Shown here: positions 1,878-46,450 of the stretch, one piece after another | Position numbering within the stretch: position 1 is the first letter of the stretch | How the letters are laid out: every line of letters begins with the position of its first letter | Source of the DNA: Escherichia phage WG01 | Strand: one strand, 5' to 3' | Sequence record: NC_031928.1 | Length of the DNA stretch: 64,000 nucleotides | Made by a program: the position numbers and the translations under genes | Notes under the pieces: model-generated | Database searches by the model: none | Told to the model about the DNA's origin: nothing | What the model saw: the letters and a program-made list of their open reading frames with translations, nothing else

Positions 1878-2471
1878 TTACTTAAGTGAATTAATGTAGT
1901 CTTCGATATCAGCAGAAGTCGTATCCATTCCAACTTGCGGGCCTTTAAACGTTTCTACGCGCATCAGGGTGTCTTCGATATCAATCTTGGTCAGTGCAGC
2001 AATTTCAACAACATCGTCGGCAGTAGCAATACCAAGGGCAGCCATATTACGAGTTTCACGGATGTACTCGAGCTTAACAGCCAGTTCCTGACGAGAGTCA
2101 TCAAGTTCCTTAACCTTCAGTTTAATTTCATTACGCATTTCGATATAATCATCGGCTTTCTTACGAAGCTGGGTAGCTGTACGACGATAAAGGAGGCCAA
2201 GTTTAGCATGTACCTGGACATCAGCGCCTTCGGCAATCAGTTTACGAATTTCACGTTCTTTAGAAGCAGCGAGCTGGTCTTTTTCATTAGCCAATGCACG
2301 AATACGTTTTTCTTCATTCACAGACTTAACATGAGCAGTCTGGAGTTCAGTGATTTTATCAATCAGAGTAGAAGCAGCTTTGGTGTATTGGTCTTCGATT
2401 GACAGGTTCTGAGCCATTGCGGTGCCCAGTTTAGAACGAATGAATTCAACGATTTTCTTTAAAGTGTTCAT
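1878..2471 (-). CDS. coiled-coil protein, possibly PspA/IM30-like
   Basis: ORF track 1878..2546; start moved to ATG at 2471 (MNTLKK...) with AAGGAAA RBS; long heptad-rich helical segments; PspA resemblance is by eye only. Confidence 0.45.
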
Positions 2472-2547
2472 AGTATTTCCTTCAGTTGGTTGATATTTTG
2501 TAATCCATGAGGACATTATACCCTGTCCTCTGAGGTTTGTAAACATT

Positions 2548-2946
2548 TTATTTCATTTTTGCGAGGCAGATTTCATTGGCTTCCCATTGAGCTTGCTTAA
2601 TAATAGCTTTGGATACAGGAGCCCTTTGGCCATAAGTTTTTGACGTTGAGAGAACAATACATTTGTTTGCTTCATTATGCCAGCCCCATGATTTTTCGCC
2701 ATGAGTACCTTTAACTACAGCTGACACCTCAACAGAGCAACCACCATCAGAAATCTTGGTTTCGACAACCCATTCATTTCTCTCAGCAGCTTCAATTTCT
2801 AATCTAGTTTTTTCTTCATACATCGCGGCCCAATCAGTTTTTGCCAAGTTGAAAGTAAGAGCTTTCTCTAATTCTTTGGCATATTTTTGTTGTTCAGGTG
2901 TTAATGAATTATACAACTCTTGCATTTCTTTATCTTCGATATTCAT
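2548..2946 (-). CDS. hypothetical protein
   Basis: 132-aa ORF with GAGGAGAA RBS; tightly packed with neighbours. Confidence 0.5.
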
Positions 2947-3004
2947 TATGTTCTCCTCAAATTATGGGCTCATAATATCTTAATCATGAGCCCATGTAAA
3001 CGTT

Positions 3005-3283
3005 TTATTTCATATTATTGAAATAATTTTCTGCATCAAAATCATTACCATGGTAAACTTTGGTAGACGATTTGGCGTAACCTTCAGCTGAGAACATATT
3101 AATCACAACTTTAATTGTATACCACTGTCCATCTTCATTACCCATTACTGCATAGGTTTCATACACCGGGTGTTCAGGACCGATAACCTTAATATCGTTA
3201 ACTGTGGCACCAAATTCTTCCGGAACACATTTCATAAAGAAATTAAACACTTCACCATAATTATCCATTTTACTCTCCTTCAC
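3005..3283 (-). CDS. hypothetical protein
   Basis: 92-aa ORF with AAGGAGAG RBS; early-promoter cassette immediately upstream. Confidence 0.5.
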   Translation of the reverse strand: MKESKMDNYGEVFNFFMKCVPEEFGATVNDIKVIGPEHPVYETYAVMGNEDGQWYTIKVVINMFSAEGYAKSSTKVYHGNDFDAENYFNNMK

Positions 3284-4725: not shown

Positions 4726-4898
4726 GCTGTGATGTAAGGGGACGTTAACAGATCGTAAAGATTTGTTAATGCCAGTCCTTACTCAGGGAACATCAGTCCG
4801 ACGACTTACCGGTAGCGACCCGGTTTCTTGTTTGTTGCGCCGGTGAATGCTGGTAATCAGTCTTCATACGACGGCTTGACTATATAATAGTCTTCATT

Positions 4899-4973
4899 TG
4901 GTATCCCGCCCTGGGATCGAACCAGGACCGCAAACTTAGAAGGATCGTATGCTATCCATTACACCAGCGGGAC
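4899..4973 (-). tRNA. tRNA-Arg (anticodon TCT)
   Basis: 75-nt cloverleaf on minus strand: 7-bp acceptor stem GTCCCGC/GCGGGAT, T-arm CCTGG-TTCGATC-CCAGG, anticodon loop CT-TCT-AA, encoded CCA. Confidence 0.8.
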
Positions 4974-4978
4974 GTAGT

Positions 4979-5055
4979 TGGTGACCCAGACCAGATTTGA
5001 ACTGGTAACCTTTCCCTTATGAGGGGACTGCTGCTAACCATTGAGCTACAGGGCC
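4979..5055 (-). tRNA. tRNA with anticodon CAT (Met, or Ile if lysidine-modified)
   Basis: Minus strand: acceptor GGCCCTG with 6 of 7 pairs, T-arm ACCAG-TTCAAAT-CTGGT, anticodon loop CT-CAT-AA, encoded CCA; D-arm irregular. Confidence 0.65.
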
Positions 5056-5060
5056 TTAAA

Positions 5061-5333
5061 TCAAACTACAAATCCAGCAGGAGCATTATCATCTTTAGCC
5101 ATGTGCTGAATTGTATGATAAGTCATTTCTTCAGGAGCAACCAGATAAGCCGCAGCGTTAACTAGTGGAATTATTTTTGGTTTAGCGAATGTGCTATCGG
5201 CAATTGCCATAAAGGGCTCGCCGTCGGTCTCAACTTCACCAAATTGACATTCATACGAAATAGAACAACGTTTGGTAGTGGTTGTCTTGGTTGCCGGGTC
5301 ATAAAAAGCTAATTTTAATACTAACATAAACAC
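5061..5333 (-). CDS. hypothetical protein
   Basis: 90-aa ORF directly upstream of the tRNAs on the same strand; GAGGT RBS. Confidence 0.4.
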   Translation of the reverse strand: MFMLVLKLAFYDPATKTTTTKRCSISYECQFGEVETDGEPFMAIADSTFAKPKIIPLVNAAAYLVAPEEMTYHTIQHMAKDDNAPAGFVV

Positions 5334-5444
5334 CTCAAATAAAATTAAGTAAAGTAAGTTTGATTAATAGACCTTGTCTATTATGAAAGGTTCTTTGAGG
5401 GAAGAACCTTTGGTAATAGAGGGTTACTTAATAATGTTAGAGTA

Positions 5445-5469
5445 ATAATAACACATTACTCTTAAAGCA
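5445..5469 (-). promoter_or_regulatory. candidate MotA-dependent middle promoter upstream of ORF 5061..5333 and the tRNAs
   Basis: Minus strand ATGCTTTAA (MotA-box-like TGCTTTA) followed 12 nt later by TATTAT. Confidence 0.3.
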
Positions 5470-5506
5470 TATTACTATTTTTAGGAATAGTCTGGTCAAA
5501 TTTGAT

Positions 5507-5797
5507 TCATTGTGGCCACATATTAATGTAATCAAGTTTAATAGAAGCAATCTTCAAAGGATTTTTAAAGATGTCGTATTCGACCAACCCGTTTTCAGTT
5601 GCGGTGTAGAAAGTAAAGTTAACAGAATTATAACGGCGACCATTAACTTTTAGTTTAACGTCGCTTGAACTACGACCAATATTAACCTGTTGGACATCAA
5701 GCACAGCACCTTTGCCAAAGTTGCGAATCAGTAGCTCTGCTGCAACCTGGTCTGAATTATATCCATTCTCTGGATTAGTAACCTTAACGTATAACAT
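5507..5797 (-). CDS. hypothetical protein
   Basis: 96-aa ORF abutting the upstream gene. Confidence 0.45.
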   Translation of the reverse strand: MLYVKVTNPENGYNSDQVAAELLIRNFGKGAVLDVQQVNIGRSSSDVKLKVNGRRYNSVNFTFYTATENGLVEYDIFKNPLKIASIKLDYINMWPQ

Positions 5798-6199
5798 TTA
5801 ACCCTCGTCTACAATAGTATGGGTATTGGCATTAACAATCTGCCACCAGTCAAAACGATCTGAGCCGTAAAGAGGATTATTCTCGTTTTCTTTAACAATT
5901 TCACGTAGTTCGTCTTCAGAAAATGCTTTAGCGATTAAATCGGTATAGCCACCACGTGGATAATAGTTATCACCAGCGAACAAAAGGAAATTTACCTTTC
6001 CAGAAGGAACATATGCTTCCTTAGGATACTTGTTTCCTGCATGGTCTACCACTTCAATATAACGGTAAGGAATATCAGTACTTTCAACCCATTGCCAAGC
6101 CGCAGCAGGGGATTCAAAAGCATCAACACCTAAACGGTTATCTTCATCTTTAGACGGATTATTTTCATAATCCGCATATACATAATATTCAACGTTCAT
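5798..6199 (-). CDS. hypothetical protein
   Basis: 133-aa ORF; start overlaps the stop of 6199..6384. Confidence 0.5.
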   Translation of the reverse strand: MNVEYYVYADYENNPSKDEDNRLGVDAFESPAAAWQWVESTDIPYRYIEVVDHAGNKYPKEAYVPSGKVNFLLFAGDNYYPRGGYTDLIAKAFSEDELREIVKENENNPLYGSDRFDWWQIVNANTHTIVDEG

Positions 6200-6384
6200 T
6201 ATTCACCTTTAGAGATTTTATCCATAACGATAGCGATTAAGCCGATTAGAAATGCTACTACCAATGAGATAGAATTTTCTGTTGTTGTCAGTAGTCCACA
6301 AATGAATCCTACAAACATCGAAAAGCTAAAAGCCATTGAAGCAATTACTACAGCAACATTACGAATCAGTTCAGCGCGTTTCAT
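6199..6384 (-). CDS. small membrane protein
   Basis: 61-aa ORF with two hydrophobic helices; GAGGAG RBS; early-type promoter upstream. Confidence 0.45.
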   Translation of the reverse strand: MKRAELIRNVAVVIASMAFSFSMFVGFICGLLTTTENSISLVVAFLIGLIAIVMDKISKGE

Positions 6385-7356: not shown

Positions 7357-7385
7357 ATAGTATCATGCCTATAGACCTTGTAAAC
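7357..7385 (-). promoter_or_regulatory. early-type promoter cassette
   Basis: GTTTAC, 17 nt, TACTAT plus conserved AGACCTATCAAAAC; upstream of internal-protein-like ORF 7097..7318. Confidence 0.5.
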
Positions 7386-7396
7386 AACTTTTTAAA

Positions 7397-8295
<899 letters not shown>

Positions 8296-9729: not shown

Positions 9730-10566
9730 TTATGAATTCTTCCATACTTTCTGAGCTGAATAACGCTTGCCTTTAGACATGAACTGTTGGAGCGGCATCA
9801 TTACGACATTAGCCCAATCAGACGGTTTTATCTCTACTAAAGGTCCCTTAATATTTCCAGGGATATAAGCCTTAATCATCACGTCGGCGCCAGCGAATCC
9901 TTTTACCTTACTCCAATCGATTTTTAATTTAGTCGAGTTCGTAATGGTAGGCGTACTCGCGTATTGCTTCAGCAATTCTTCCAGAAATTGCTGACGTGCT
10001 TTAGGTGGAATATAGTGTAAGTTCAGTCCGTACATTAAATTATGCTTACCTAACCCAAGATAAATTATTAAAGGATATTTGTCCCAGTATGGTAGGGTAT
10101 CCTTATGTTTGGCATCATAGATATAAGCATAAAGCTTACCAGGAGACGGTTTAGATACCTGGTGCCCACGAATTCCTTTCTTTAATGTTTCTGTAAACCA
10201 TTTAGCCGATTTATTGTTTACAGCGGCGCCCTCGTTAGCAATCTTATCACGAATACTCTTTCTAAAACTATTCACCAAAATTAATTGACGTTCTGCTTTG
10301 GTTAATTTATTGCCAGGTTTCTTCTGAAGTTTTTCAACCTGTACAGCAGTTTTAATTCGACTCGAGTATCGAGACATCGCAGATGTAAAGCTAGAATACT
10401 TGATGCCTTTATCTTCAGCGAATTTCTTAGCCGAAACACCTTTAGCCTTAGCGTTGGCATATTCAACGCCTAAAGTTATCCATTGTTGTTCTGAACGAGT
10501 AGGCTTGGAACCTTTTGTAGTTTCAGTAGCCTCGTTGATGTAAGAAAATATACTCATCCTTTCCAT
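9730..10566 (-). CDS. 2: DNA end protector protein (gp2)
   Basis: 278 aa (T4 gp2 about 274 aa); synteny 3-2-4. Confidence 0.65.
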
Positions 10567-11003
10567 CCTAATTTTTTCAGTGAGTTTTCGGTAATCAATC
10601 TGAAATTAATTCCCATTTTATCTGCTGTAGCTTTAGCAGCTTTCCATTTATCTTTATTTACACTCCATGTATAATGTTCGTTGATATATCTCTTTTTAGC
10701 AGCTGTAGTCATTTTAGCAGGCGCCGCTGGAGGATGGGTCTCTTTAAAAGGTTTGACTTCGAAAAAGAATTGTTGACCATTGTCGAACTTCACCCAGAAG
10801 TCCATAAAATACCGACGTTTCTTTCCATCAGCGTTACTAAAATATGGAATCACAACCTCTTCCGAGTTCCACTGGACGACATTAGGATGGTTGTCAAGCC
10901 AACGCATAAGCCATGCTTCCCAAGAGGAACGATATTGGATTTTCTTCCAATCACCTTTATATTTTTGTAAGTTTGTAGGTTTAAATTTCCCTGAGTAGGC
11001 CAT
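10554..11003 (-). CDS. 4: head completion protein (gp4)
   Basis: 149 aa; N-terminus MAYSGKFKP is T4 gp4-like; divergent from gene 53. Confidence 0.7.
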
Positions 11004-11013
11004 AGTGCCTCCT

Positions 11014-11021
11014 TATAAATA
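11014..11021 (+). promoter_or_regulatory. late promoter (TATAAATA) for gene 53
   Basis: Exact TATAAATA about 28 nt upstream of the gene 53 ATG. Confidence 0.6.
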
Positions 11022-11048
11022 TTAATATTATTTATACTCGGAGGCACT

Positions 11049-11651
11049 ATGCTCTTCTCATTTTTCGATCCTATAAATTACGAATCAAAAACAGTCAAGC
11101 CAGATTCCGGCTCATTAACTGATGCCGATGTACTGAGCGTACCGATGACTGATATATTTAGAAACTATAAAGAATATTTTGATAAAGTGGCTAAAAATTA
11201 TACACTTAAAACATATTATATCAGTGGGGCCCCTCGTCCAGAAGAATTAGCCCATCAACTTTATGGTAACGTGCAATTATATTGGGTTTTATTGATGTGT
11301 AATAACGTATATGACCCTTATTACGGCTGGATTACAGGCCAAGAATCTGCGTATCAAGCAGCTATTCAACGTTATGCTACTGCAGGCGGAAACCAAGTCC
11401 TTTATCATGTCAATGAAAAGGGTGAGAAATTCTGGAATCTAGTAAATACTCCGGAAAATCCTTATACTTGGTACGATAAAGGTGATACAGAAAAACGTTA
11501 TCCTCAATATGAAGGTCCTTTGGCTGCAGTAGATATTTACGAGGACGCCATTCGTAAAAATGAATATAAGCGCGAAATAAAGATTATAGACCCTAATGAC
11601 ATCGAGTCCTTTGTTTCCGCTTTAATTAGAGAAATGGAGAAAGCCCTCTAA
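11049..11651 (+). CDS. 53: baseplate wedge protein gp53
   Basis: 200 aa; late promoter upstream; directly precedes gene 5. Confidence 0.75.
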   Translation: MLFSFFDPINYESKTVKPDSGSLTDADVLSVPMTDIFRNYKEYFDKVAKNYTLKTYYISGAPRPEELAHQLYGNVQLYWVLLMCNNVYDPYYGWITGQESAYQAAIQRYATAGGNQVLYHVNEKGEKFWNLVNTPENPYTWYDKGDTEKRYPQYEGPLAAVDIYEDAIRKNEYKREIKIIDPNDIESFVSALIREMEKAL

Positions 11652-13438
11652 TGATTAACATGTCTGATAATGTAAGTTGGTTCGTCGGTGTAGTTGAAGA
11701 CCGAATGGACCCACTCCAACAAGGCCGAGTACGCGTGCGCGTATGGGGTATGCATCCCTATGAAAAGGTGCAAGGTCCTGTAAAAGGCCTTCGTACAGAA
11801 GATTTACCATGGATGTCGGTATTAATGCCTACATCTTCTGCCTCTGTTTCAGGTATCCAAACCGCTATGACTGGTATGGTCCCCGGTACACAAGTTTATG
11901 GTCACTTTCTTGATAAGTGGAAATTAAACGGACTTGTCCTTGGTACATACGGTTCCGCTTCAAGACAGAAGGCTAATCCTAATGAAGGGTTTAGTGACCC
12001 TACAGGCCAATATCCGCTTTATTTAGGTAACGATGCTGCTGCTTTAAACCGAGGTGGTGAAGTTGGATACGATGCCACTTCTAACGTAATACAAGATGCA
12101 AACACTGATGTAGGTATTAATCCTGACGGGTTGGATTTAAGTCAAGTCAAACCAGACGATAATCCTAATTTCACAATAGAAAACATGCTTCATCGTGATG
12201 AAGGGCTTAGACTGAAGGTATATTGGGATACCGAAGGTTATCCTACTATAGGTATAGGCCACCTTATCACACCACAACCTATTAGAGATATGAATCGAAT
12301 AAACAAAATATTATCTAATCAGGTAGGACGAGAAGTTAAAGGTAACCCTGGTGCAATATCAATGGATGAGGCTTCTAAATTATTCCAAGAAGACCTTAAA
12401 AAAGTCCAAAACGATATAGGTCGGCATAGTGTTGTAGGTCCTGTTTACAATAAAGAAAACCGTTCAAGACAAATGGCTCTTGAAAACATGGCTTTCCAAA
12501 TGGGATTAGGTGGATTGGCTAAATTCCGTGGAATGCTTAGTGCAATGCTAATAGGCGATTATAAAAAGGCATTTGAGGAAGCTCGTAATTCAGTATGGTT
12601 TAACCAAACTAAAGGTCGCGCATCAAGGGTGTCAATGATTATCCTCACAGGTAACATGGAATCATATGGTATTATGGCCCCTAAAGAAAGGTCATTTAAT
12701 GGCCGTTCGTATAGAATGATTCAAACCTTTGTGGCCCCTACAAATTCAGACCCTGCCGACCCGTGGACTCCAGAAGACACAAGGATTCTTTTTAAAGAAC
12801 CTGATTCTAGTTATAAAGGCGAATATCCATATGTCCAAACCATGCAAACTGAAGGCGGGCATATCCAAGAATTCGATAATACCCCAGGGCAAGAACGATA
12901 CCGTTTAATCCATCCTACCGGTAGTTATGAAGAAGTTGCTCCTGATGGACGTAAAACTTCTAAGACGGTAGCCGATGGTTATTATATGACCCAAGGCGAT
13001 TCAAATACTTATGTTGGTGGTAATAATAAAGTCAACGTTGGTGGCGATGAAACCTATTATAATATGGCAAACGTGCGCCGTCAAACTGATGGGTCTGAAA
13101 GCATTCATATTCGAGGGAATGAAACCAAAACTGTAGAAGGTAATGGAACTCTGCTTGTTAAAGGAAATGTTAAAATAGTTATTATGGGTACTGCTGATAT
13201 AACTGTTGAACAAGAAGCATATATTACGGTTGAAAAAGATACAACAGTTAATGTCAACCAGAATGCAGATATAAGCGTTAAACAAAAGGCCACAATCAAT
13301 GCTCAAAATATGGATGTAAATGTCGAACAAGATTTAAATTTTGCAGCGACGAACATTAATTTAAACGCATCAAATACTGTGCATATGGATGGCGGTTCAT
13401 TAGCTAAAGTATCTGGTGGCAACGTACAGGTCGGTTAA
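11651..13438 (+). CDS. 5: baseplate central spike with lysozyme domain (gp5)
   Basis: 595 aa; T4-lysozyme-like segment LRLKVYWDTEGYPTIGIGHLI; C-terminal repetitive beta-helix-like region. Confidence 0.9.
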   Translation: MINMSDNVSWFVGVVEDRMDPLQQGRVRVRVWGMHPYEKVQGPVKGLRTEDLPWMSVLMPTSSASVSGIQTAMTGMVPGTQVYGHFLDKWKLNGLVLGTYGSASRQKANPNEGFSDPTGQYPLYLGNDAAALNRGGEVGYDATSNVIQDANTDVGINPDGLDLSQVKPDDNPNFTIENMLHRDEGLRLKVYWDTEGYPTIGIGHLITPQPIRDMNRINKILSNQVGREVKGNPGAISMDEASKLFQEDLKKVQNDIGRHSVVGPVYNKENRSRQMALENMAFQMGLGGLAKFRGMLSAMLIGDYKKAFEEARNSVWFNQTKGRASRVSMIILTGNMESYGIMAPKERSFNGRSYRMIQTFVAPTNSDPADPWTPEDTRILFKEPDSSYKGEYPYVQTMQTEGGHIQEFDNTPGQERYRLIHPTGSYEEVAPDGRKTSKTVADGYYMTQGDSNTYVGGNNKVNVGGDETYYNMANVRRQTDGSESIHIRGNETKTVEGNGTLLVKGNVKIVIMGTADITVEQEAYITVEKDTTVNVNQNADISVKQKATINAQNMDVNVEQDLNFAATNINLNASNTVHMDGGSLAKVSGGNVQVG

Positions 13439-13439
13439 T

Positions 13440-15503
13440 ATGAATTACTACGATAAAGTTGATGAAGTGGTAGGGACTGTAACAAGTCCCTGTGATGACG
13501 CAGTAGGACCCGGTGAATATCGCCGGGTTAAATGGGAATTATATAACCCAACAGGTGCTTTTATTCAACCTGGGAATGGCGTTGAATGGGATACCGAGAT
13601 TATTCCACTAGCTACACATTTATACACACAAAATCCATTTGGTAATAAGTCCGAAACTTTTCCTGCACCTCCCCCACCGGAAGATGGAACAAGTCAAGGT
13701 ATCTGGTGTGCTAAACTCGGAATATTCTTTATTACGCAATTGGATTTAGAAAATTATGTAGAATCGATTGGTGCAACTCTTTTGCCCGGTAATGATTGGT
13801 ACGGCGCTGATTTATCAAAATCTGTATTGTATAAAACATCTATTGAATATGATATGTATCGCATCGAAAACTGTGGCGGTGTATGGACATCACAAGGCCC
13901 CAGAATGGACCCCAGGACGATGATTGCAGTTACGGCTGATTATCATATGTATGTCAACTTTAACGGCCTTGGTGACTCCCGCAGGGCTTATTTGAAGTAC
14001 TATGAGACAAAACCTTGTACTTATGTTGGACTGGTATTAAATCTAGATGTTGATATGAGTATCCCAGGAACTCCGATTCCGGGACCGGTATCCATCGGGT
14101 CTTTACCGCCAGAAATAACCGGGCGAGCCAGGGCAATAAGCTGTGTTCCTTTTACAGCGGAATTCCCTTACAACGGATTGACCAATGCGATTATGGCTTC
14201 ATGGAATACATCTAGGAATTCATTCAAATTATATTGGGATATGCTCCCTGGATGGCCATCATCTGGTGGAACCGATTGGGAAAAATTCTTCGATTCTGGT
14301 TATAGTAAGCTATCGGTCGCAATGGAAGAGCTAGGCAACTCGGCTGTTGCTATGTGTCAATATGTTCAGCAAATGGCTTTTCTTGCATTTAAAGATGCCA
14401 TATCACAGGTCTTGAATATTGTTGGCGGTGGGTGGGACTTACTTAAAAGCTTTTTACCCTCGATTACTATTATGGGCATGACTATTGACCTAGAAGACCT
14501 CTGCACTTCAGGTGATGGTGTACAGAAATTAAAAGAAGCATGGAAAAACTTTAATTTAGAAGAAACCATCCAATCGATTTATTCTGCCATTGGGTCTGCA
14601 TACGATTATTCGGTTGAACGCGTCAAGATGTATTCGCGTGACCTTATTGATGCAATTACAGACTTGTATGACTGGGCCTGGTCTCAATTGCTTATGGCTG
14701 GTGTTGCATTATCAAAACTGTGTGTAGACCTCGCTCAAATATGGAGTATGCCTCCTATAGTTCCGAACCCAGTTTGGAGCGTTATTACTGCGGTCAAGGA
14801 AATGATGAAGCAAGTTAAACCACTGGACATGATAATGAGCGGTAACTTTCCAGGATTCACAGCATCAGATGTTTATCAAATGGTTATGGAAAAGGTAGAC
14901 CAGAAAATAGACGAAGCTTATGCAATGATTGAGGCTCTTAAAACCCAGGCACTCAATCTGTGGAATGAGATTAAGCTCAAAAAGCAAGAAGTACAAAAAC
15001 AAGCTATTGAATTTAAACAATATCTTTCAGGAATGTACGAAAAAGTTACAGACGAGCTAACTGCTCAGAAGGAAGCCGCATTAGCACAAGCTGAAGCTGC
15101 ACTCGAACTTTTAAAGAATAAATATAATCAGATTAAGAACTCTATTACCGAAAGTCAAACCTCCGTTTCTGATGTATTAGATATGGCTTTAGAAGAATTC
15201 AAAAAACTTCCTATTGTGGCTCAAATGGAAGAACTTCTCGGTATGCTCGGAGCTACTGTAGATGATATCATGGTTATATACGAGAACTCAGTAACTAAAG
15301 CAAAATCTTTATATCACGAATTTACTGATGGTTCCAGGTCAATGAAAGACTTGTGCAAATCAATGTATAACCAAATATCAACATTATCCTTAAGTAAGGT
15401 GGTACAATGGATTAATAAGATGCTGGGAATATTCGGTTTAACGATTGCATTTCCATCCCTTTCCATTTGCATACCTTGTTTAGAATCTCCTACTAGGAAT
15501 TAA
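13440..15503 (+). CDS. large hypothetical protein inserted between genes 5 and 6
   Basis: ORF track 13416..15503 starts at GTG; ATG at 13440 sits in a TAATATG junction with the gene 5 stop; 688 aa with Pro-rich PAPPPPEDG, C-terminal coiled coil and hydrophobic tail; no T4 gene of this size here. Confidence 0.6.
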   Translation: MNYYDKVDEVVGTVTSPCDDAVGPGEYRRVKWELYNPTGAFIQPGNGVEWDTEIIPLATHLYTQNPFGNKSETFPAPPPPEDGTSQGIWCAKLGIFFITQLDLENYVESIGATLLPGNDWYGADLSKSVLYKTSIEYDMYRIENCGGVWTSQGPRMDPRTMIAVTADYHMYVNFNGLGDSRRAYLKYYETKPCTYVGLVLNLDVDMSIPGTPIPGPVSIGSLPPEITGRARAISCVPFTAEFPYNGLTNAIMASWNTSRNSFKLYWDMLPGWPSSGGTDWEKFFDSGYSKLSVAMEELGNSAVAMCQYVQQMAFLAFKDAISQVLNIVGGGWDLLKSFLPSITIMGMTIDLEDLCTSGDGVQKLKEAWKNFNLEETIQSIYSAIGSAYDYSVERVKMYSRDLIDAITDLYDWAWSQLLMAGVALSKLCVDLAQIWSMPPIVPNPVWSVITAVKEMMKQVKPLDMIMSGNFPGFTASDVYQMVMEKVDQKIDEAYAMIEALKTQALNLWNEIKLKKQEVQKQAIEFKQYLSGMYEKVTDELTAQKEAALAQAEAALELLKNKYNQIKNSITESQTSVSDVLDMALEEFKKLPIVAQMEELLGMLGATVDDIMVIYENSVTKAKSLYHEFTDGSRSMKDLCKSMYNQISTLSLSKVVQWINKMLGIFGLTIAFPSLSICIPCLESPTRN

Positions 15504-30778: not shown

Positions 30779-33088
<2,310 letters not shown>

Positions 33089-39584: not shown

Positions 39585-41144
39585 ATGAAAAAGAATGCAT
39601 TAGTTCAAAAATGGTCCGCTCTGCTGGAAAACGAAGCCCTTCCTGAAATCGTGGGTGCTTCTAAACAAGCTATCATCGCTAAAATTTTCGAAAACCAGGA
39701 ACAAGACATCCTGACTGCTCCGGAATATCGTGATGAAAAAATCTCTGAAGCATTTGGTTCTTTCCTGACCGAAGCTGAAATTGGTGGTGACCACGGTTAT
39801 GATGCTACCAATATCGCAGCTGGCCAGACTTCTGGTGCTGTAACTCAGATTGGGCCGGCAGTAATGGGTATGGTTCGTCGTGCTATTCCTCATCTGATTG
39901 CTTTTGATATTTGTGGTGTTCAGCCTCTGAATAACCCTACCGGCCAGGTATTTGCCCTTCGTGCAGTTTATGGTAAAGACCCTATCGCTGCTGGCGCTAA
40001 AGAAGCTTTCCATCCGATGTATTCTCCGGATGCTATGTTCTCTGGTCAGGGTGCTGCTGAATCTTTCGAAGCACTGGCTGCAAGCAAAGTTCTGGAAGTT
40101 GGTAAAATTTATTCTCACTTCTTCGAAGCTACCGGTGCTGCACACTTCCAGGCTGTTGAAGCCGTAACCGTTGATGCTGCTGCTACTGATGCCGCTAAAC
40201 TGGATGCTGCTGTTACCGCTTTGATTGAAGCTGGTAAGTTGGCTGAATTGGCTGAAGGTATGGCTACTTCTATCGCTGAACTTCAGGAAGGCTTTAACGG
40301 TTCTACCGATAACCCGTGGAACGAAATGGGCTTCCGCATCGACAAACAAGTTATCGAAGCTAAATCCCGTCAGCTGAAAGCAAGCTACTCTATCGAACTG
40401 GCACAGGACCTTCGTGCAGTACACGGTATGGATGCAGATGCTGAACTGTCCGGTATCCTTGCTACCGAAATTATGCTCGAAATCAACCGTGAAGTTATCG
40501 ATTGGATTAACTACTCTGCACAGGTTGGTAAATCTGGTATGACCAACACCGTTGGCGCTAAAGCTGGTGTGTTTGACTTCCAGGACCCGATTGATATCCG
40601 TGGTGCTCGTTGGGCCGGTGAGAGCTTTAAAGCCCTTCTGTTCCAGATTGATAAAGAAGCAGCCGAAATCGCTCGTCAGACCGGTCGTGGTGCTGGTAAC
40701 TTCATCATCGCTTCCCGTAACGTAGTTAACGTACTGGCTGCAGTTGATACTTCTGTAAGTTATGCAGCTCAAGGTCTGGGTCAAGGTTTCAACGTTGACA
40801 CAACCAAAGCAGTATTTGCCGGTGTTCTTGGTGGTAAATATCGCGTTTACATCGACCAGTATGCACGTTCCGATTACTTCACCATCGGTTATAAAGGCGC
40901 TAACGAAATGGACGCAGGTATCTACTACGCTCCGTACGTTGCACTGACCCCGCTGCGTGGTTCCGATCCGAAGAACTTCCAACCGGTAATGGGCTTCAAA
41001 ACTCGTTACGGTATCGGTATCAACCCGTTCGCTGACCCGTCTGCACAGGCTCCTACCAAACGTATTCAGAGCGGTATGCCTGACATCGTTAACAGCCTTG
41101 GTCTGAATGGTTATTTTCGTCGGGTTTATGTCAAAGGAATTTGA
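39585..41144 (+). CDS. 23: major capsid protein gp23
   Basis: 519 aa (T4 521 aa); strong terminator downstream. Confidence 0.9.
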   Translation: MKKNALVQKWSALLENEALPEIVGASKQAIIAKIFENQEQDILTAPEYRDEKISEAFGSFLTEAEIGGDHGYDATNIAAGQTSGAVTQIGPAVMGMVRRAIPHLIAFDICGVQPLNNPTGQVFALRAVYGKDPIAAGAKEAFHPMYSPDAMFSGQGAAESFEALAASKVLEVGKIYSHFFEATGAAHFQAVEAVTVDAAATDAAKLDAAVTALIEAGKLAELAEGMATSIAELQEGFNGSTDNPWNEMGFRIDKQVIEAKSRQLKASYSIELAQDLRAVHGMDADAELSGILATEIMLEINREVIDWINYSAQVGKSGMTNTVGAKAGVFDFQDPIDIRGARWAGESFKALLFQIDKEAAEIARQTGRGAGNFIIASRNVVNVLAAVDTSVSYAAQGLGQGFNVDTTKAVFAGVLGGKYRVYIDQYARSDYFTIGYKGANEMDAGIYYAPYVALTPLRGSDPKNFQPVMGFKTRYGIGINPFADPSAQAPTKRIQSGMPDIVNSLGLNGYFRRVYVKGI

Positions 41145-41175
41145 TAACATAAGTTATTAATTCTTAAAATTATTT

Positions 41176-41205
41176 GGGAGACTTCGGTCTCCCATTCTTG
41201 TTTCT
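41176..41205 (+). terminator. intrinsic terminator after gene 23
   Basis: GGGAGACTTCGGTCTCCC hairpin followed by a T-rich tract. Confidence 0.7.
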
Positions 41206-41208
41206 GTA

Positions 41209-41490
41209 TTATGCAATCTTAACTCGGCGGTTGATGATATCACGGAAGTCAATACGATTTTCTTGGATTTTCAGCCAGTTACCAGATTTGTCTTTGGTAT
41301 GGGTAGAGTATTCACCGTTCCACCAGAAGTCGGTAGCATAAGCCATGGCTTCGTATTTCTTAACTAAGGCATTCACTGCATTACCATTAGGATTGTTACC
41401 GAATTTTTCTACCAGAGCTTTGATGTCTTTATCAAGAGCGGAAAGAGTAGTACGAATAAAGTTTAACTTGTTCATTTTTAATCTCCTCAT
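41209..41490 (-). CDS. hypothetical small protein in the 23-24 intergenic slot
   Basis: 93-aa ORF on opposite strand with early-promoter cassette and AGGAGA RBS; T4 has segD at this position. Confidence 0.45.
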   Translation of the reverse strand: MRRLKMNKLNFIRTTLSALDKDIKALVEKFGNNPNGNAVNALVKKYEAMAYATDFWWNGEYSTHTKDKSGNWLKIQENRIDFRDIINRRVKIA

Positions 41491-41504
41491 GTTTTGATAG
41501 GTCT

Positions 41505-41534
41505 ATAGTAACATGTGAGAATCTTGCTGTAAAC
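41505..41534 (-). promoter_or_regulatory. early-type promoter cassette
   Basis: GTTTAC, 18 nt, TACTAT plus AGACCTATCAAAAC; upstream of ORF 41209..41490, back-to-back with the gene 24 late promoter. Confidence 0.5.
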
Positions 41535-41540
41535 AACTTT

Positions 41541-41548
41541 TATAAATA
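41541..41548 (+). promoter_or_regulatory. late promoter for gene 24
   Basis: Exact TATAAATA 29 nt upstream of the gene 24 ATG. Confidence 0.65.
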
Positions 41549-41576
41549 AACATATACCCTCAATAAGGAAAGCGCA

Positions 41577-42860
41577 ATGGCAAAGATTAACGAATTACTG
41601 CGCGAGTCAACAACTACTTCCAGCAACTCATTGGGTCGCCCTAATCTTGTTGCTTTGACCCGTGCTACAACCAAATTGATTTACCGTGATATTATCGCCG
41701 AACAACGTACTAGCCAGCCTATTGCTGCACTGTATGGTGTCAAATATCTTACCCCTGATAATGAATTTAGTTTCCAGACAGGTGCCTCTTATGGTGGTGA
41801 AGTTGGTTCTAAAGACCGTGAAACTATCCCAGAACTCACAGATAAGGCCCAGGCGATTGCTCAGGGTGAATATTTCAAGTACCAGAATGTGGTTTATAAG
41901 GCTCTTAAAGCAAGCCCACTCGCGTCCACTAGCGCCCCAGAATTGGCTGATGCTCTTCAAGAAGGTTTAGTGTCATTAACATGTCGTCTGGTTCCTGATG
42001 CTGCCCATACCACTAAATTTGAAGCGAGTGATGTAGAAATCTCTGATGCTGTATTCCAGGTTAATAAATGGAATGCTCCGGTTAAGACCCGTAAATTGAA
42101 GACGGCTTTGACTGTAGAATTAGCGCAGGATATGGAATCAAATGGCTTTGACGCGCCGGCGTTCTTAGAAGACCTCTTGGCTACAGTAATGGCAGATGAA
42201 ATTAATAAAGACGTTCTGCAATCTCTAATAACCGTATCCAAACGTTATAAAGTTACTGGTGTATCTGATAACGGCATCATCGATTTGTCTTATGACAGTG
42301 CTCCTGAATCTGCACGTAAACTTTATGAACTCGTTTGTGAGATGAATTCTGAAATCCAGAAAACTACTTCTTATTCTGGCACGTTTGTTGTGGCTTCAAG
42401 TCGTGTGGCTGCAATGCTTGCAGGTTCTGGCTGGTTAAAACATAAACCCGAAGATAATAATTGGCTTCCGGAAACTGCATACGGATATTTGTTGAATGGT
42501 CTGCCTCTGTTTTGTGACGTTAACAGTCCATTAGATTATGTTACCGTTGGTGTTAAAGAGAATTACGGCGGTAATGAAGTTGTCGGTTCTATTTTCTACG
42601 CTCCCTATACCGAAGGCTTAGATTTAGATGACCAAGAACACGTCGGTGCTTATAAGGTTATTGTTGACCCGGATTCATTACAACCTTCTATTTCTCTGAT
42701 GGTTCGTTATGCACTATCAGCTAACCCGTACACCGTGGCTAAAGACGATAAAGAAGCTCGTGTTATCGATGCAACCAATATGGATTTAATGGCTGGACAG
42801 AGCAATATGTCTTATCTGGTTGGCGTTAAACTTCCGGCAATTATTTACGAGGCTGATTAA
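41577..42860 (+). CDS. 24: capsid vertex protein gp24
   Basis: 427 aa; N-terminus MAKINELLRESTTT is T4 gp24-like; late promoter upstream. Confidence 0.9.
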   Translation: MAKINELLRESTTTSSNSLGRPNLVALTRATTKLIYRDIIAEQRTSQPIAALYGVKYLTPDNEFSFQTGASYGGEVGSKDRETIPELTDKAQAIAQGEYFKYQNVVYKALKASPLASTSAPELADALQEGLVSLTCRLVPDAAHTTKFEASDVEISDAVFQVNKWNAPVKTRKLKTALTVELAQDMESNGFDAPAFLEDLLATVMADEINKDVLQSLITVSKRYKVTGVSDNGIIDLSYDSAPESARKLYELVCEMNSEIQKTTSYSGTFVVASSRVAAMLAGSGWLKHKPEDNNWLPETAYGYLLNGLPLFCDVNSPLDYVTVGVKENYGGNEVVGSIFYAPYTEGLDLDDQEHVGAYKVIVDPDSLQPSISLMVRYALSANPYTVAKDDKEARVIDATNMDLMAGQSNMSYLVGVKLPAIIYEAD

Positions 42861-44140
42861 TGTCTAAGATTGTAGACCTAATTAAAGAATCCACATTGAC
42901 GGCTGCCAGCTCGGTTGGCCGTCCTGCTCTTCTTTCATACACCCAAGCAACTAATAAACGAATCTTTAAAGCCCTAGTTGCTGAACAAAAAACAAATCAA
43001 CCGGTTGCTGCTCTGTATGGGGTACGTGTACTGAATCCTGACGACAAAATGACTTATCTTGGTGGAGCAACATTTGCGGGCCAGATTGGTATGACGGAAC
43101 GTGAAAATATTCCAGAATTTACTGATTCATCTACAGCTTATGCGGTCGGTGATATGTTCCAGTTTGAAAGCGTAGTGTTTAAAGTTCTAGAAGCATCTCC
43201 TTTCGCCGGAACCACAGAAACCAACCTCAGCGAAGTTATTTCTGAAGCAGTGGCAGCCGGCCATATCCGTATGGTGTCGGATGCTGCTATTACTTCTAAA
43301 TTTGAACAAGGCCATCCTGAAATTGCTGAAACCGGATTCCGTATCGACAAATGGCAATCTGAAGTTAAATCACGTAAACTGAAAACTTCATTGACAGTCG
43401 AATTAGCCCAAGACCTAGAATCTAACGGGTTTAATGCTCCTAATTTCGTTGAAAATCTGCTAGGCATTCAAATGGCAGAAGAAATTAATAAGGATGTATT
43501 ACAGTCATTAATTACCGTGAGCTCTCGTTTTAAAGTCCAGGGTGTTTCTGAAAAGGGTGTATTAGACCTTACCAACCCTCGCTACGATAATGCCCAGGAC
43601 CGTGCTCGCACATTATATTATTATATGTGTGAGATGAACTCTGCCGTCCAACGACAGACTTCTTTTGCCGGGACTTATGCAGTAGCTAGTTCTCGTTGTG
43701 CTGCTATTCTCGCCGCCTCTGGTTGGGTTGAGAAAAAGGAAGACCAGGACGAATTGGCTTATGGTATATTAAAGAATGGCCTACCACTTTATGCCGATAT
43801 GAATAGTCCATGTGATTATGTTATTGTTGGTGTAAATGCCCAGATGGGTGAAGGACAGACGGTCGCATCTTTATATTATGCGCCTTATACGGAAGGTTTG
43901 AATGTGGTTGACGAAGAAGGTGATACTTCAGTTGGTGAATTTAAGGTTATTGTTGACCCGGAAAGCTTACAACCTACAGTAGCATTGCTTGCCCGTTATG
44001 CATTGACTGCAAACCCTTATACCGTCGCTAAGGACGATAAAGAAGCCCGCATTATTGATGGTTCTGATATGGACAAAATGGCTAATCAAAGTCAATTGAG
44101 TTCTTATCTCGGCGTAAAATTACCGCCTTTAGAAAAATAA
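42860..44140 (+). CDS. second gp24-like capsid vertex paralog
   Basis: 426 aa, colinear with the adjacent gp24 (shared GRPxL, AEQxTxQPxAALYGV, LQSLITVS, ANPYTVAKDDKEAR blocks) but clearly diverged. Confidence 0.8.
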   Translation: MSKIVDLIKESTLTAASSVGRPALLSYTQATNKRIFKALVAEQKTNQPVAALYGVRVLNPDDKMTYLGGATFAGQIGMTERENIPEFTDSSTAYAVGDMFQFESVVFKVLEASPFAGTTETNLSEVISEAVAAGHIRMVSDAAITSKFEQGHPEIAETGFRIDKWQSEVKSRKLKTSLTVELAQDLESNGFNAPNFVENLLGIQMAEEINKDVLQSLITVSSRFKVQGVSEKGVLDLTNPRYDNAQDRARTLYYYMCEMNSAVQRQTSFAGTYAVASSRCAAILAASGWVEKKEDQDELAYGILKNGLPLYADMNSPCDYVIVGVNAQMGEGQTVASLYYAPYTEGLNVVDEEGDTSVGEFKVIVDPESLQPTVALLARYALTANPYTVAKDDKEARIIDGSDMDKMANQSQLSSYLGVKLPPLEK

Positions 44141-44166
44141 AAGGGACCTTACGGTCCCTTTATCGT
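44141..44166. terminator. bidirectional terminator between the gp24 paralog and rnlB
   Basis: AAGGGACCTTACGGTCCCTT hairpin with A/T-rich flanks on both sides, between convergent genes. Confidence 0.6.
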
Positions 44167-45174
44167 TTATTTGGATACTAGTTCAATCCATACATGTCTT
44201 AATGTTTCTTTTACACACTCAACGAGCTGCTTTTTAACTTCAACGGGATTTTCCGCATCAGTTAATTCCAATTCTTCACGGGCGGCTTCTTCAAGGATAT
44301 CCTGGACTGTCAAGCCCATCACCTTTCCGAAATCCTTCGGCGATACTTCGCCAATCTTACTGATGACATTGTTAATGCGGTTAACAGTCACATAATCGGT
44401 GAATTGCCACATCAAATCCATATCGTCTTGGGACAATACCACTGCAACTTTAATAGGCTTATCAGACTTTTTCTTCTCGCTGAATTTAGAGTTCTTACAT
44501 TTAATCGCCACACGATTTCCGTTTGGAAGCCAGGTAGGAACATCAGGTTTCAATACAAAGCCTTCAGCCGTGAATACCTTACCTTCTACCTTAGGAATAA
44601 AATCGGTTGAGTTTGCAATAGTTAAGCCTGCGTTATCCACTGCAAAATTATAATCAGGAACAACTGAATCAAAATCATTAGGAAGTTTAATAAGGTCTTC
44701 AAAGCTACCAGTGGCCAGACATGGAGCTACCTTAAACTTATGGATAATACAGAAGGCTTCCATCAATGTATCGGTTAGAACAGATTCTGAGCCATCTTCT
44801 TTAGTAACTCGGATATCGAACACATAAAAGTCTTTATCGCCGTAGTCCACATTCTTCTGGATACCTGTCCCAGCGAATTCGCCATAAATCTGGTATGACT
44901 GATAATTAATCGATTCAATTAGATGTTGAACTGATTTAATAGAATCAGCGTAGTTCTTAAGTACAATTTCATAACCATAGAAATCTTCAGCAGGGAGGAT
45001 AGGGCCAGTGCGCTTGGCGCATGTGACTGCGTCACGTTCTATGATTAAACTAAAGTTGGTTCCATGAATCTTCTCACGTGCTACCCATTCACCACCAGTC
45101 AAACCGTTAGTACGGAGTTTTTCGATAAACTTACTGTTGTAGTGGTTTTCGAGACTGCTATATTTCTTGAACAT
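44167..45174 (-). CDS. rnlB: RNA ligase 2
   Basis: 335 aa; N-terminus [20 protein letters not shown] and nucleotidyltransferase motif I EKIHGTN match T4 Rnl2; T4-syntenic after gene 24. Confidence 0.9.
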
Positions 45175-45601: not shown

Positions 45602-46450
45602 TTAATAAATGTAATCGTATATAATACCAGCTTCTAAAGCGGTGCGATGAATAATTCGACCATTACGAGATTCTTGTACATCAACCTCTGAATAGTCGGT
45701 AATCATTTTTTGAAGTGTATATCGGTGCAAATAATACGGGCTATCCGGGTCATCTGTTTTCCAGTCTTTGCCTTCAAGAGTCATTTTCTGGATTTCATCC
45801 ATAACCCACCAACCAACCCAAATATATGCTGAATTACGAACAGGGAGTGGATGAACGTAAGGTAATTCGCCATCCGGAACCGGTGCGACTTTAGCCGTGA
45901 CTGTTACATTACCGGTTTTTGTGACAGTCGCCGGGTTATAATCAGTCGCCGAAACCACAACAGAAACTTCAATAACCTGTGAACCTTCAGTGCTTGTATC
46001 GATTGCTAGAGTATCCGTGGTGCCAACTACAGGAGAACCGTCTTTCTTCCAAGAATAGGCAAAAGTAGCACCAGCAGGAGCGCCGACCACATCCGCTTTA
46101 AAAGAAGCTGGAGTGCCTTCCGGAACATTAATCGAAGCTGGGGTTAATGTCACAGAAACACCGGAAATGGTTTTATTCTGGATAGTTAAAGTTGTTTCGG
46201 CTTCAGCTGTTTCTGGTTCGCCGTCAGCCGGTGTAGTTGTTGCAACAACTTTAATAGTCTTGCTGCCTGCCGGGCCAACAGCAACATAATCCATTGCAGC
46301 AGTCACAGAAGATTGAGGAACGCCATCAACGGTCCAGACAAATGATTCGGTACCTTCAGCTGCAGCACCGGAACCGGTCGCAGTGAAATTGGTTGTTGCT
46401 CCAATAACGGCCGTAGCCGCCAAAGGAGCCATATCTACGGTATAAGCCAT
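45602..46450 (-). CDS. hoc: Hoc-like outer capsid decoration protein (shorter than T4 Hoc)
   Basis: 282 aa; Thr/Val/Ala-rich Ig-like repeats then Trp-rich C-terminal module; T4-syntenic between rnlB and inh. Confidence 0.65.
   Translation of the reverse strand: MAYTVDMAPLAATAVIGATTNFTATGSGAAAEGTESFVWTVDGVPQSSVTAAMDYVAVGPAGSKTIKVVATTTPADGEPETAEAETTLTIQNKTISGVSVTLTPASINVPEGTPASFKADVVGAPAGATFAYSWKKDGSPVVGTTDTLAIDTSTEGSQVIEVSVVVSATDYNPATVTKTGNVTVTAKVAPVPDGELPYVHPLPVRNSAYIWVGWWVMDEIQKMTLEGKDWKTDDPDSPYYLHRYTLQKMITDYSEVDVQESRNGRIIHRTALEAGIIYDYIY

Follow-up and report, generated by a model that had tools for sequence, protein, structure and literature searches.

Two tandem gp24-type genes, 24a and 24b, as candidate vertex subunit genes in Escherichia phage WG01 and related Tevenvirinae

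INTRODUCTION

In T4-like phages the gene encoding gp23, the major capsid protein, is adjoined by that of its paralogue gp24, both copies of this duplicated capsid gene having the HK97 fold and each being specialised for a different position in the lattice. The cleaved propeptide comprises 65 residues in T4 gp23 and 10 in gp24, the latter being removed by the prohead protease gp21, which cuts after Glu10 (PMC9546572). T4 and most Tevenvirinae have a single gene 24, whereas the stretch of DNA analyzed here, 64,000 nucleotides of Escherichia phage WG01 (sequence record NC_031928.1; hereafter the window), contains two. The first, 24a, is by homology the orthologue of T4 gene 24, and the second, 24b, which follows it directly, also specifies a protein of the gp24 type but groups outside the clade formed by T4 gp24 and the 24a products.

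The pair is already known at the level of annotation, in about 100 records besides those of phages JS98, JS10, IME08, VR5, and CGG4-1, and is not a discovery of this work. The 2.9-kb region has 99.8% nucleotide identity to Escherichia phages Bp7 and vB_EcoM_FB, 99.7% to QL01, and 85 to 93% to JS10 and JS98; the relatives Bp7, JS10, and JS98 belong to the genus Dhakavirus of the Tevenvirinae. The genes are labeled "24a" and "24b: gp24 head vertex protein" in the GenBank records of JS98, JS10, and IME08, capsid or head vertex protein I and II in those of VR5, VR25, VR26, CGG4-1, and ZX14, and head vertex protein, twice, in that of Bp7. The 24a-24b pair of JS98, JS10, and IME08 is the identical feature: the order of gene 23, a small minus-strand open reading frame (ORF), 24a, 24b, and rnlB is common to them and the window, and the window genes are 95 to 96% (24a) and 91 to 97% (24b) identical to those of JS98 and JS10. 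No structural difference separates the JS98-type pairs from that of the window, and their records supply names only. Chibani-Chennoufi (2004) and Zuber (2007), both writing on JS98, are reported to mention the gene 24 duplication, as is the Bp7 genome paper.

Here we describe the age, distribution, constraint, and expression signals of the pair and consider what two such genes could do in one phage. The reading that we prefer, with a probability of about 0.6, is that 24a and 24b are two co-produced, gp21-processed vertex subunits forming separate pentamers in one head.

RESULTS

Two full-length gp24-type genes in tandem

The part of the window that holds the pair is organized as follows.

39585-41144, plus strand: gene 23 homologue, major capsid protein (519 amino acids; Pfam PF07068, E = 3e-122)
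41577-42860, plus strand: 24a (ORF A; 427 amino acids, begins MAKINELLREST), T4 gp24 orthologue, capsid vertex protein precursor
42860-44140, plus strand: 24b (ORF B; 426 amino acids, begins MSKIVDLIKEST), second gp24-type vertex protein gene
44167-45174, minus strand: rnlB, convergent to the pair

The head-cluster order is 20-67-68-21-22-23-24a-24b. An earlier reading of the DNA made from its letters alone (the sequence-only reading) had pointed to a diverged, colinear gene of 426 amino acids right after gp24, had regarded it as a third member of the gp23/gp24 family, and had proposed two comparisons, one among the three proteins and one across T4-like genomes. Both observations hold. The 24a and 24b products align end to end with 55% identity and 77% positives (BLASTP, E = 5e-176), far above chance, while the gp23 homologue is about 25% identical to each of them (E = 2e-19 with 24a and 1e-21 with 24b), and all three proteins match Pfam PF07068 (Gp23). 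At 55% identity, 24a and 24b have the gp24-type architecture in common, in contrast to gp23 and gp24, which at only about 25% identity are also of unequal length. In PHROGs both 24a and 24b fall into phrog_138 ("major head protein"), a group that does not separate the gp23 from the gp24 type, and NCBIfam contained no model matching either. The two genes are alike in composition, with GC contents of 0.425 (24a) and 0.424 (24b) and a codon-usage cosine of 0.94.

Identity of the two products

Against the sequence of the T4 gp24 crystal structure (PDB 1YUE), 24a scored 660 bits (E = 1e-197). It is 70% identical to T4 gp24, has an identical N terminus, MAKINELLREST, and with MAKINELLRE/S (the slash marks the cut) repeats the T4 gp21 cleavage site, all of which identifies it by homology as the T4 gp24 orthologue. 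The score of 24b against 1YUE was 505 bits (E = 1.4e-150, residues 1 to 423), compared with only about 48 bits against gp23 chains, and its identity to T4 gp24 is 56%. Its N terminus, MSKIVDLIKE/ST, has the prohead-protease motif at the sequence level, and L-I-x-E followed by S occupies residues 7 to 11 in every 24b orthologue (variants LIKE, LIQE, LIRE, LIHE, and LIYE). Both window proteins thus resemble T4 gp24 in being full-length homologues of equal length, with the same N-terminal cleavage motif and a position after gene 23.

A single-chain AlphaFold2 model of 24b, built from a 75-sequence alignment, had a predicted local distance difference test score (pLDDT) of 74 and a predicted template modeling score (pTM) of 0.71. 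Its best Foldseek matches were T4 gp24 structures, namely, 5vf3_a (template modeling [TM] scores of 0.81/0.83), 7vrt_he (0.77/0.85; root mean square deviation, 3.2), and 1yue, while gp23 chains reached a TM score of about 0.55. Since the predicted fold is best matched by gp24 and not by gp23 chains, 24b is, as judged from sequence and model, a gp24-type protein and not a gp23-type one; the model has the HK97 fold plus the insertion domain that mark the solved gp24 structures (PDB 1YUE, 5VF3, 7VRT, and 7VS5).

Distribution of the pair

We then used 24b as a tblastn query against phage records. Homologues of gp24 were found at 1,534 places in 1,417 records, so that about 117 records have two places. 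A threshold of E ≤ 1e-172 isolates the 24b type, and the survey of T4-like genomes for a duplicated gene 24 that had been proposed at the outset returned it from 115 of the 1,417 gp24-bearing records, the hosts being Escherichia, Salmonella, Klebsiella, Enterobacter, Kosakonia, and Erwinia. Among the loci inspected, the pair occurs in six genera of the Tevenvirinae (Dhakavirus, Gaprivervirus, Gelderlandvirus [S16], Marfavirus, Kanagawavirus, and Roskildevirus), and at every one of these loci 24b lies directly 3' of 24a. Metagenomic relatives, whose 24b is 68 to 70% identical to that of the window, have the order gp23-24a-24b as well. Since the 117 extra gp24 places compare with 115 records of the 24b type, 24b appears never to occur without 24a.

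Age of 24b

Neighbor-joining trees with bootstrap were built from 28, 34, and 63 sequences. The 24b clade was monophyletic with 100% bootstrap in all three, on a stem of 0.17 to 0.22 substitutions per site; window 24b is 66 to 100% identical to members of this clade versus 53 to 62% to any other gp24. A crown clade comprising all 24a proteins and the single gp24 of T4, Mosigvirus, Karamvirus, Moonvirus, and others was recovered with 99 to 100% bootstrap in the 28- and 63-sequence trees and with 89% in the 34-sequence tree, and 24b fell outside it. Because 24b has the outgroup state at 6 of the 8 sites that define the crown clade, this outside position would be real rather than a product of long-branch attraction; the argument is a modest one, the substitutions being conservative. 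The 24a subtree is mirrored by that of 24b, and Roskildevirus-like sequences stand at the base of each (75 to 94% and 90 to 96%). The single-copy lineages, T4 included, nest between the Roskildevirus 24a and the remaining 24a genes.

By these trees 24b is an old, separate paralogue and not the product of a recent duplication. Two histories fit them: either the duplication is old and 24b was later lost from several lineages, that of T4 among them, or 24b alone or the entire cassette moved laterally. A gp23 tree used as a proxy for the species tree, with a view to counting 24b gains and losses, gave no resolution, gp23 being 82 to 90% identical among the sampled Tevenvirinae. A Jiaodavirus-like donor of 24b was also considered; the grouping was weak (52 to 55% bootstrap with few taxa) and disappeared with 63 taxa, and of 19 states specific to Jiaodavirus 24b has only 5.

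Constraint on the two copies

The ratio of nonsynonymous to synonymous substitution rates (dN/dS) was 0.047 for 24a and 0.051 for 24b between Bp7 and JS10, and 0.062 and 0.053, respectively, between Bp7 and JS98. For 24a it was about 0.04 to 0.08 in most pairs, rising to 0.12 to 0.17 against PWKp16, where the comparisons are saturated; for 24b it was about 0.02 to 0.08 over all pairs. Purifying selection is thus equally strong on both copies, with a dN/dS of about 0.05 in unsaturated pairs. In the same 12 genomes the mean within-clade identity was 0.74 for 24a and 0.77 for 24b, and for this reason 24b is not a relaxed copy. Gene conversion between the copies was rejected, since 24a and 24b are 55 to 57% identical in each genome compared and share no long identical tract, the longest common nucleotide run being 21 nucleotides (nt). 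24b is a long-term resident and is not decaying.

Adjacent, colinear, and of nearly equal length, the two genes have the outward features of a recent tandem duplication or of an assembly artifact, in either case without functional weight. This explanation is refuted: synonymous sites between 24a and 24b are saturated (dS 1.4 to 3.9) at an amino acid identity of 55%, the same diverged pair recurs in the six genera and on metagenomic contigs, and the 24a and 24b subtrees are mirrored. The sequence-only reading had named an assembly artifact as an outcome that would overturn it, and the presence of the diverged pair in 115 independent phage records, as well as on the metagenomic contigs, excludes that outcome. 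Its description of 24b as a tandem second paralogue stands insofar as a true full-length paralogue follows the gp24 orthologue; the duplication is not recent, the lineage being old, and the gene, already annotated, is not new.

Junction, promoter, and terminator signals

The signals found around the pair are the following.

41175-41194, terminator-like on both strands: GC-rich hairpin 3' of gene 23, before 24a-24b (consensus scan only)
41541-41548, plus strand: late promoter motif TATAAATA, 28 nt 5' of the 24a start (pattern search)
42849-42852, plus strand: GAGG, Shine-Dalgarno-like, within the last codons of 24a and 7 nt before the 24b ATG (sequence reading)
42858-42862, plus strand: TAATG stop/start overlap (TAA, 42858-42860; ATG, 42860-42862)
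44140-44161, terminator-like on both strands: hairpin AAAGGGACC-TTAC-GGTCCCTTT, overlapping the final base of the 24b stop and common to rnlB (consensus scan)

The overlap of the 24b start with the 24a stop in TAATG, also noted in the sequence-only reading, is confirmed, base 42860 being common to both genes. Elsewhere, in other genera, the junction takes the forms TAATG, TAAATG, ATGA, TAATATG, and TGATATG; it is abutting or overlapping in JS10, JS98, VR5, ECML-359, S16, PWKp16, IME523, Kosakonia phage 305, and Cronus, and in two metagenomic pairs the genes likewise share a boundary base. Nearly all of the examined genomes have GAGG or GAG at the equivalent place, GAG being the form in PWKp16; Cronus has only a weaker GAGTGA run. 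The junction has been kept across all genera examined despite protein divergence of up to 27%, and this conservation, together with the Shine-Dalgarno-like element inside 24a, suggests a bicistronic late mRNA with coupled translation of 24a and 24b.

Motifs of the TATAAATA type are T4 late promoters. The copy at 41541 is the sole match between 39444 and 47151, with none inside 24a or before 24b, and the motif is enriched across the window (17 matches versus 7.7 ± 2.5 expected; none of 100 shuffles reached 17). It may serve as the late promoter of 24a-24b. The matches cluster on the plus strand, in and around head and tail genes, the plus-strand sites including those at 32579, 33081, 34477, 35226, 35779, 37764, 38713, 39437, 41541, and 47151. 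A further hairpin, at 42566-42585 inside 24a, was discarded as a terminator: it is weak (3 GC pairs), the 5 hairpins found in the region versus 2.4 ± 1.6 expected make an unconvincing excess, and it was put down to chance.

Paralogue-specific sites and pentamer contacts

Divergence between the paralogues is highest at residues ~61 to 170, that is, in the insertion domain and its linkers, a region also variable within each clade. At residues 21 to 40, the identity was 0.85 to 0.87 within each clade versus 0.42 between the clades. The substitutions fixed between the clades and conserved within them lie mainly at residues 25 to 39 and 56 to 72, and the fixed 24a/24b differences include V25L, A26S, L27Y, T32N, L34R, Y36F, I39L, K56R, Y57V, F66Y, T68G, and Y72F, as well as P/Q at residue 244. 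In the expanded T4 head, residues 26 to 29 of gp24* form a parallel beta interaction with an insertion-domain linker that belongs to the next subunit in that pentamer; linker 1 comprises residues 63 to 81, the insertion domain is packed against the gp24* subunit beside it, and residues 11 to 20 extend onto a neighboring gp23 hexamer (PMC9546572). By analogy with T4, the paralogue-specific changes would lie largely on elements of within-pentamer contact, and because they map there we infer that separate 24a and 24b homopentamers are favored over mixed ones.

The positions of these changes bear directly on another explanation, in which the two proteins are interchangeable vertex subunits that enter mixed pentamers or fill vertices at random, the pair persisting as a set that is co-adapted or shares dosage, its members not being specialized for position. 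Coupled translation, by which the two proteins would be delivered together in time and space, suits this explanation. It is nevertheless unlikely, since fixed paralogue-specific changes occur in elements that touch the neighbor subunit of the same pentamer, the insertion domain, which packs on that neighbor, is the most diverged region, and redundant copies would hardly have been kept for so long at equally low dN/dS and 45% divergence without gene conversion.

The fixed changes clustered in the N-terminal arm, taken with the long 24b stem, are also what one would expect after a functional shift, and they could mean that 24a alone is the structural vertex protein while 24b has another role and is absent or rare in mature heads. 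Such a role might be that of a prohead assembly factor, of a gp23 replacement at special lattice positions, or of a decoy or variant against host defense. On the other hand, none of the gp24 architecture is lost from 24b, which retains the surface insertion domain and the protease motif and has a predicted fold nearer to gp24 than to gp23; the constraint on it equals that on 24a along the whole length; and it lies within the late head-gene unit without a promoter of its own. We consider this explanation less probable still than that of interchangeable subunits.

A single gp24 in place of the pair in phage 04086

Escherichia phage 04086 (OR842557) has a Dhakavirus backbone in which one foreign gp24 replaces 24a and 24b (the equivalent of window positions 41209-44140). 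The flanks are those of the window, with 99.2% nucleotide identity in the 3' region of gp23 and 96.3% downstream from about window position 44139. The record is sparsely annotated, and a chimeric assembly is possible. Two of its features concern us here.

957-1628 of 04086, minus strand: ORF of 223 amino acids beside gp24, without a counterpart in the window
2001-3281 of 04086, plus strand: single gp24

The 04086 gp24 shows 68% identity with 24a versus 54% with 24b; closest to it (72 to 75%) are the gp24 proteins of Serratia phage 4S, Pectobacterium phage PM2, and Edwardsiella phage PEi20. A blastn alignment running from 24b into rnlB had suggested a 24a/24b chimera; this was rejected, the sliding-window protein identity being uniformly of the 24a type. 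The DNA of the 223-amino-acid ORF is 72% identical to a stretch of Erwinia phage Vettismorki that bears an annotated homing endonuclease in the same position. Judged from these sequences, the event looks like an endonuclease-associated cassette replacement, and it illustrates how vertex-gene cassettes can move.

Neighboring genes

Between gene 23 and 24a, an ORF of 93 amino acids (41209-41490, minus strand) is conserved (PHROG 6003, E = 8e-50); JS98, JS10, and VR5 carry it under the label "hypothetical," and 04086 has it too. The equivalent position in T4, in the gap between genes 23 and 24, is occupied by the segD homing endonuclease gene. At the hoc position of the window lies an ORF of 282 amino acids (45602-46450, minus strand) with weak matches to Ig domains only (E of about 4e-3), the counterpart of an 849-nt gene annotated as Hoc in JS98. 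The region 3' of 24b is variable among the relatives: JS10 has a "tail fiber-like protein" gene and two Hoc-like genes there (JS10 10543-13876), Cronus has tail-fiber-like and Hoc-like genes directly 3' of 24b (4827-6342), and in S16 and others a DprA-like gene is inserted beside rnlB. In Enterobacter phage vB_EhoM-IME523, a third coding sequence (7370-8275, minus strand) is labeled "capsid vertex protein gp24." It is without a Gp23-family domain, has only a weak PKD/Ig-like match, and occupies the position of the Hoc-like genes of other phages; the label is probably a mis-annotation.

DISCUSSION

The sequence-only reading had offered two functions for the pair, the use of two vertex proteins or a new role for one of the copies. 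Taken together, the sequence evidence leans toward both 24a and 24b being genuine vertex subunits. In the reading that we prefer, the two genes would constitute a late transcription unit for vertex subunits, running from the late promoter motif through 24a and 24b to the terminator hairpin, and translation of 24b would be coupled to that of 24a through the stop/start overlap and the Shine-Dalgarno-like element. Late in infection both proteins would probably be made together, at a linked ratio. Incorporation of both products into the prohead and their processing by gp21, as for T4 gp24, is the most likely next step, because both keep the full gp24 architecture and the N-terminal motif L/I-x-E followed by S. 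The two proteins would then form separate 24a and 24b homopentamers, so that a single prolate head would have pentameric vertices of two kinds.

Several points weigh against two kinds of vertex. All 55 gp24* subunits of T4 share one conformation at all 11 vertices (PMC9546572), and because this conformation is uniform there is no evident structural need for a second kind. T4 gene 24 bypass mutants even build their vertices from gp23 (PMC10580926). The exchange of the pair for one gene in 04086 suggests that one vertex protein is apparently enough to close the same gp23 lattice, provided that the assembly is sound, in which case the two-gene arrangement would be a co-adapted option and not a structural necessity. 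That one gp24 suffices T4 for 11 vertices with conformationally alike subunits, and that one gene replaces the pair in 04086, also speaks for the interchangeable subunits discussed above. The argument for homopentamers is drawn from the positions of substitutions, and the N-terminal contact on which it leans is a backbone beta interaction, weakly constrained by side chains. As to the presence of 24b in virions, no account turned up, in the literature that we searched, of what the two copies do, of their proteomics, or of a capsid structure for a phage that has both.

A more specific form of the preferred reading would put the two homopentamers at non-portal vertices (11 in all) that belong to different symmetry classes, for example, the apical vertex or the distal-cap ring as opposed to the portal-proximal ring, and a tailed phage would then have vertex proteins specific for position; in addition, the T4 lineage would have lost 24b from an ancestor with two vertex proteins. 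This we regard as doubtful.

As a genome feature the pair is ordinary, its names having been in use among curators for years. What it adds is that two equally constrained vertex genes have long been kept in about 8% of the sequenced gp24-bearing phages, in contrast to T4, which builds all 11 vertices with one protein and can even bypass that protein. The replacement in 04086 offers a natural control for the question of distinct vertices. If the two proteins do occupy different vertices, these phages would provide a simple genetic system in which to ask how the vertices of a prolate capsid are distinguished from one another, and this would have a bearing on T4-based capsid display and vaccine engineering.

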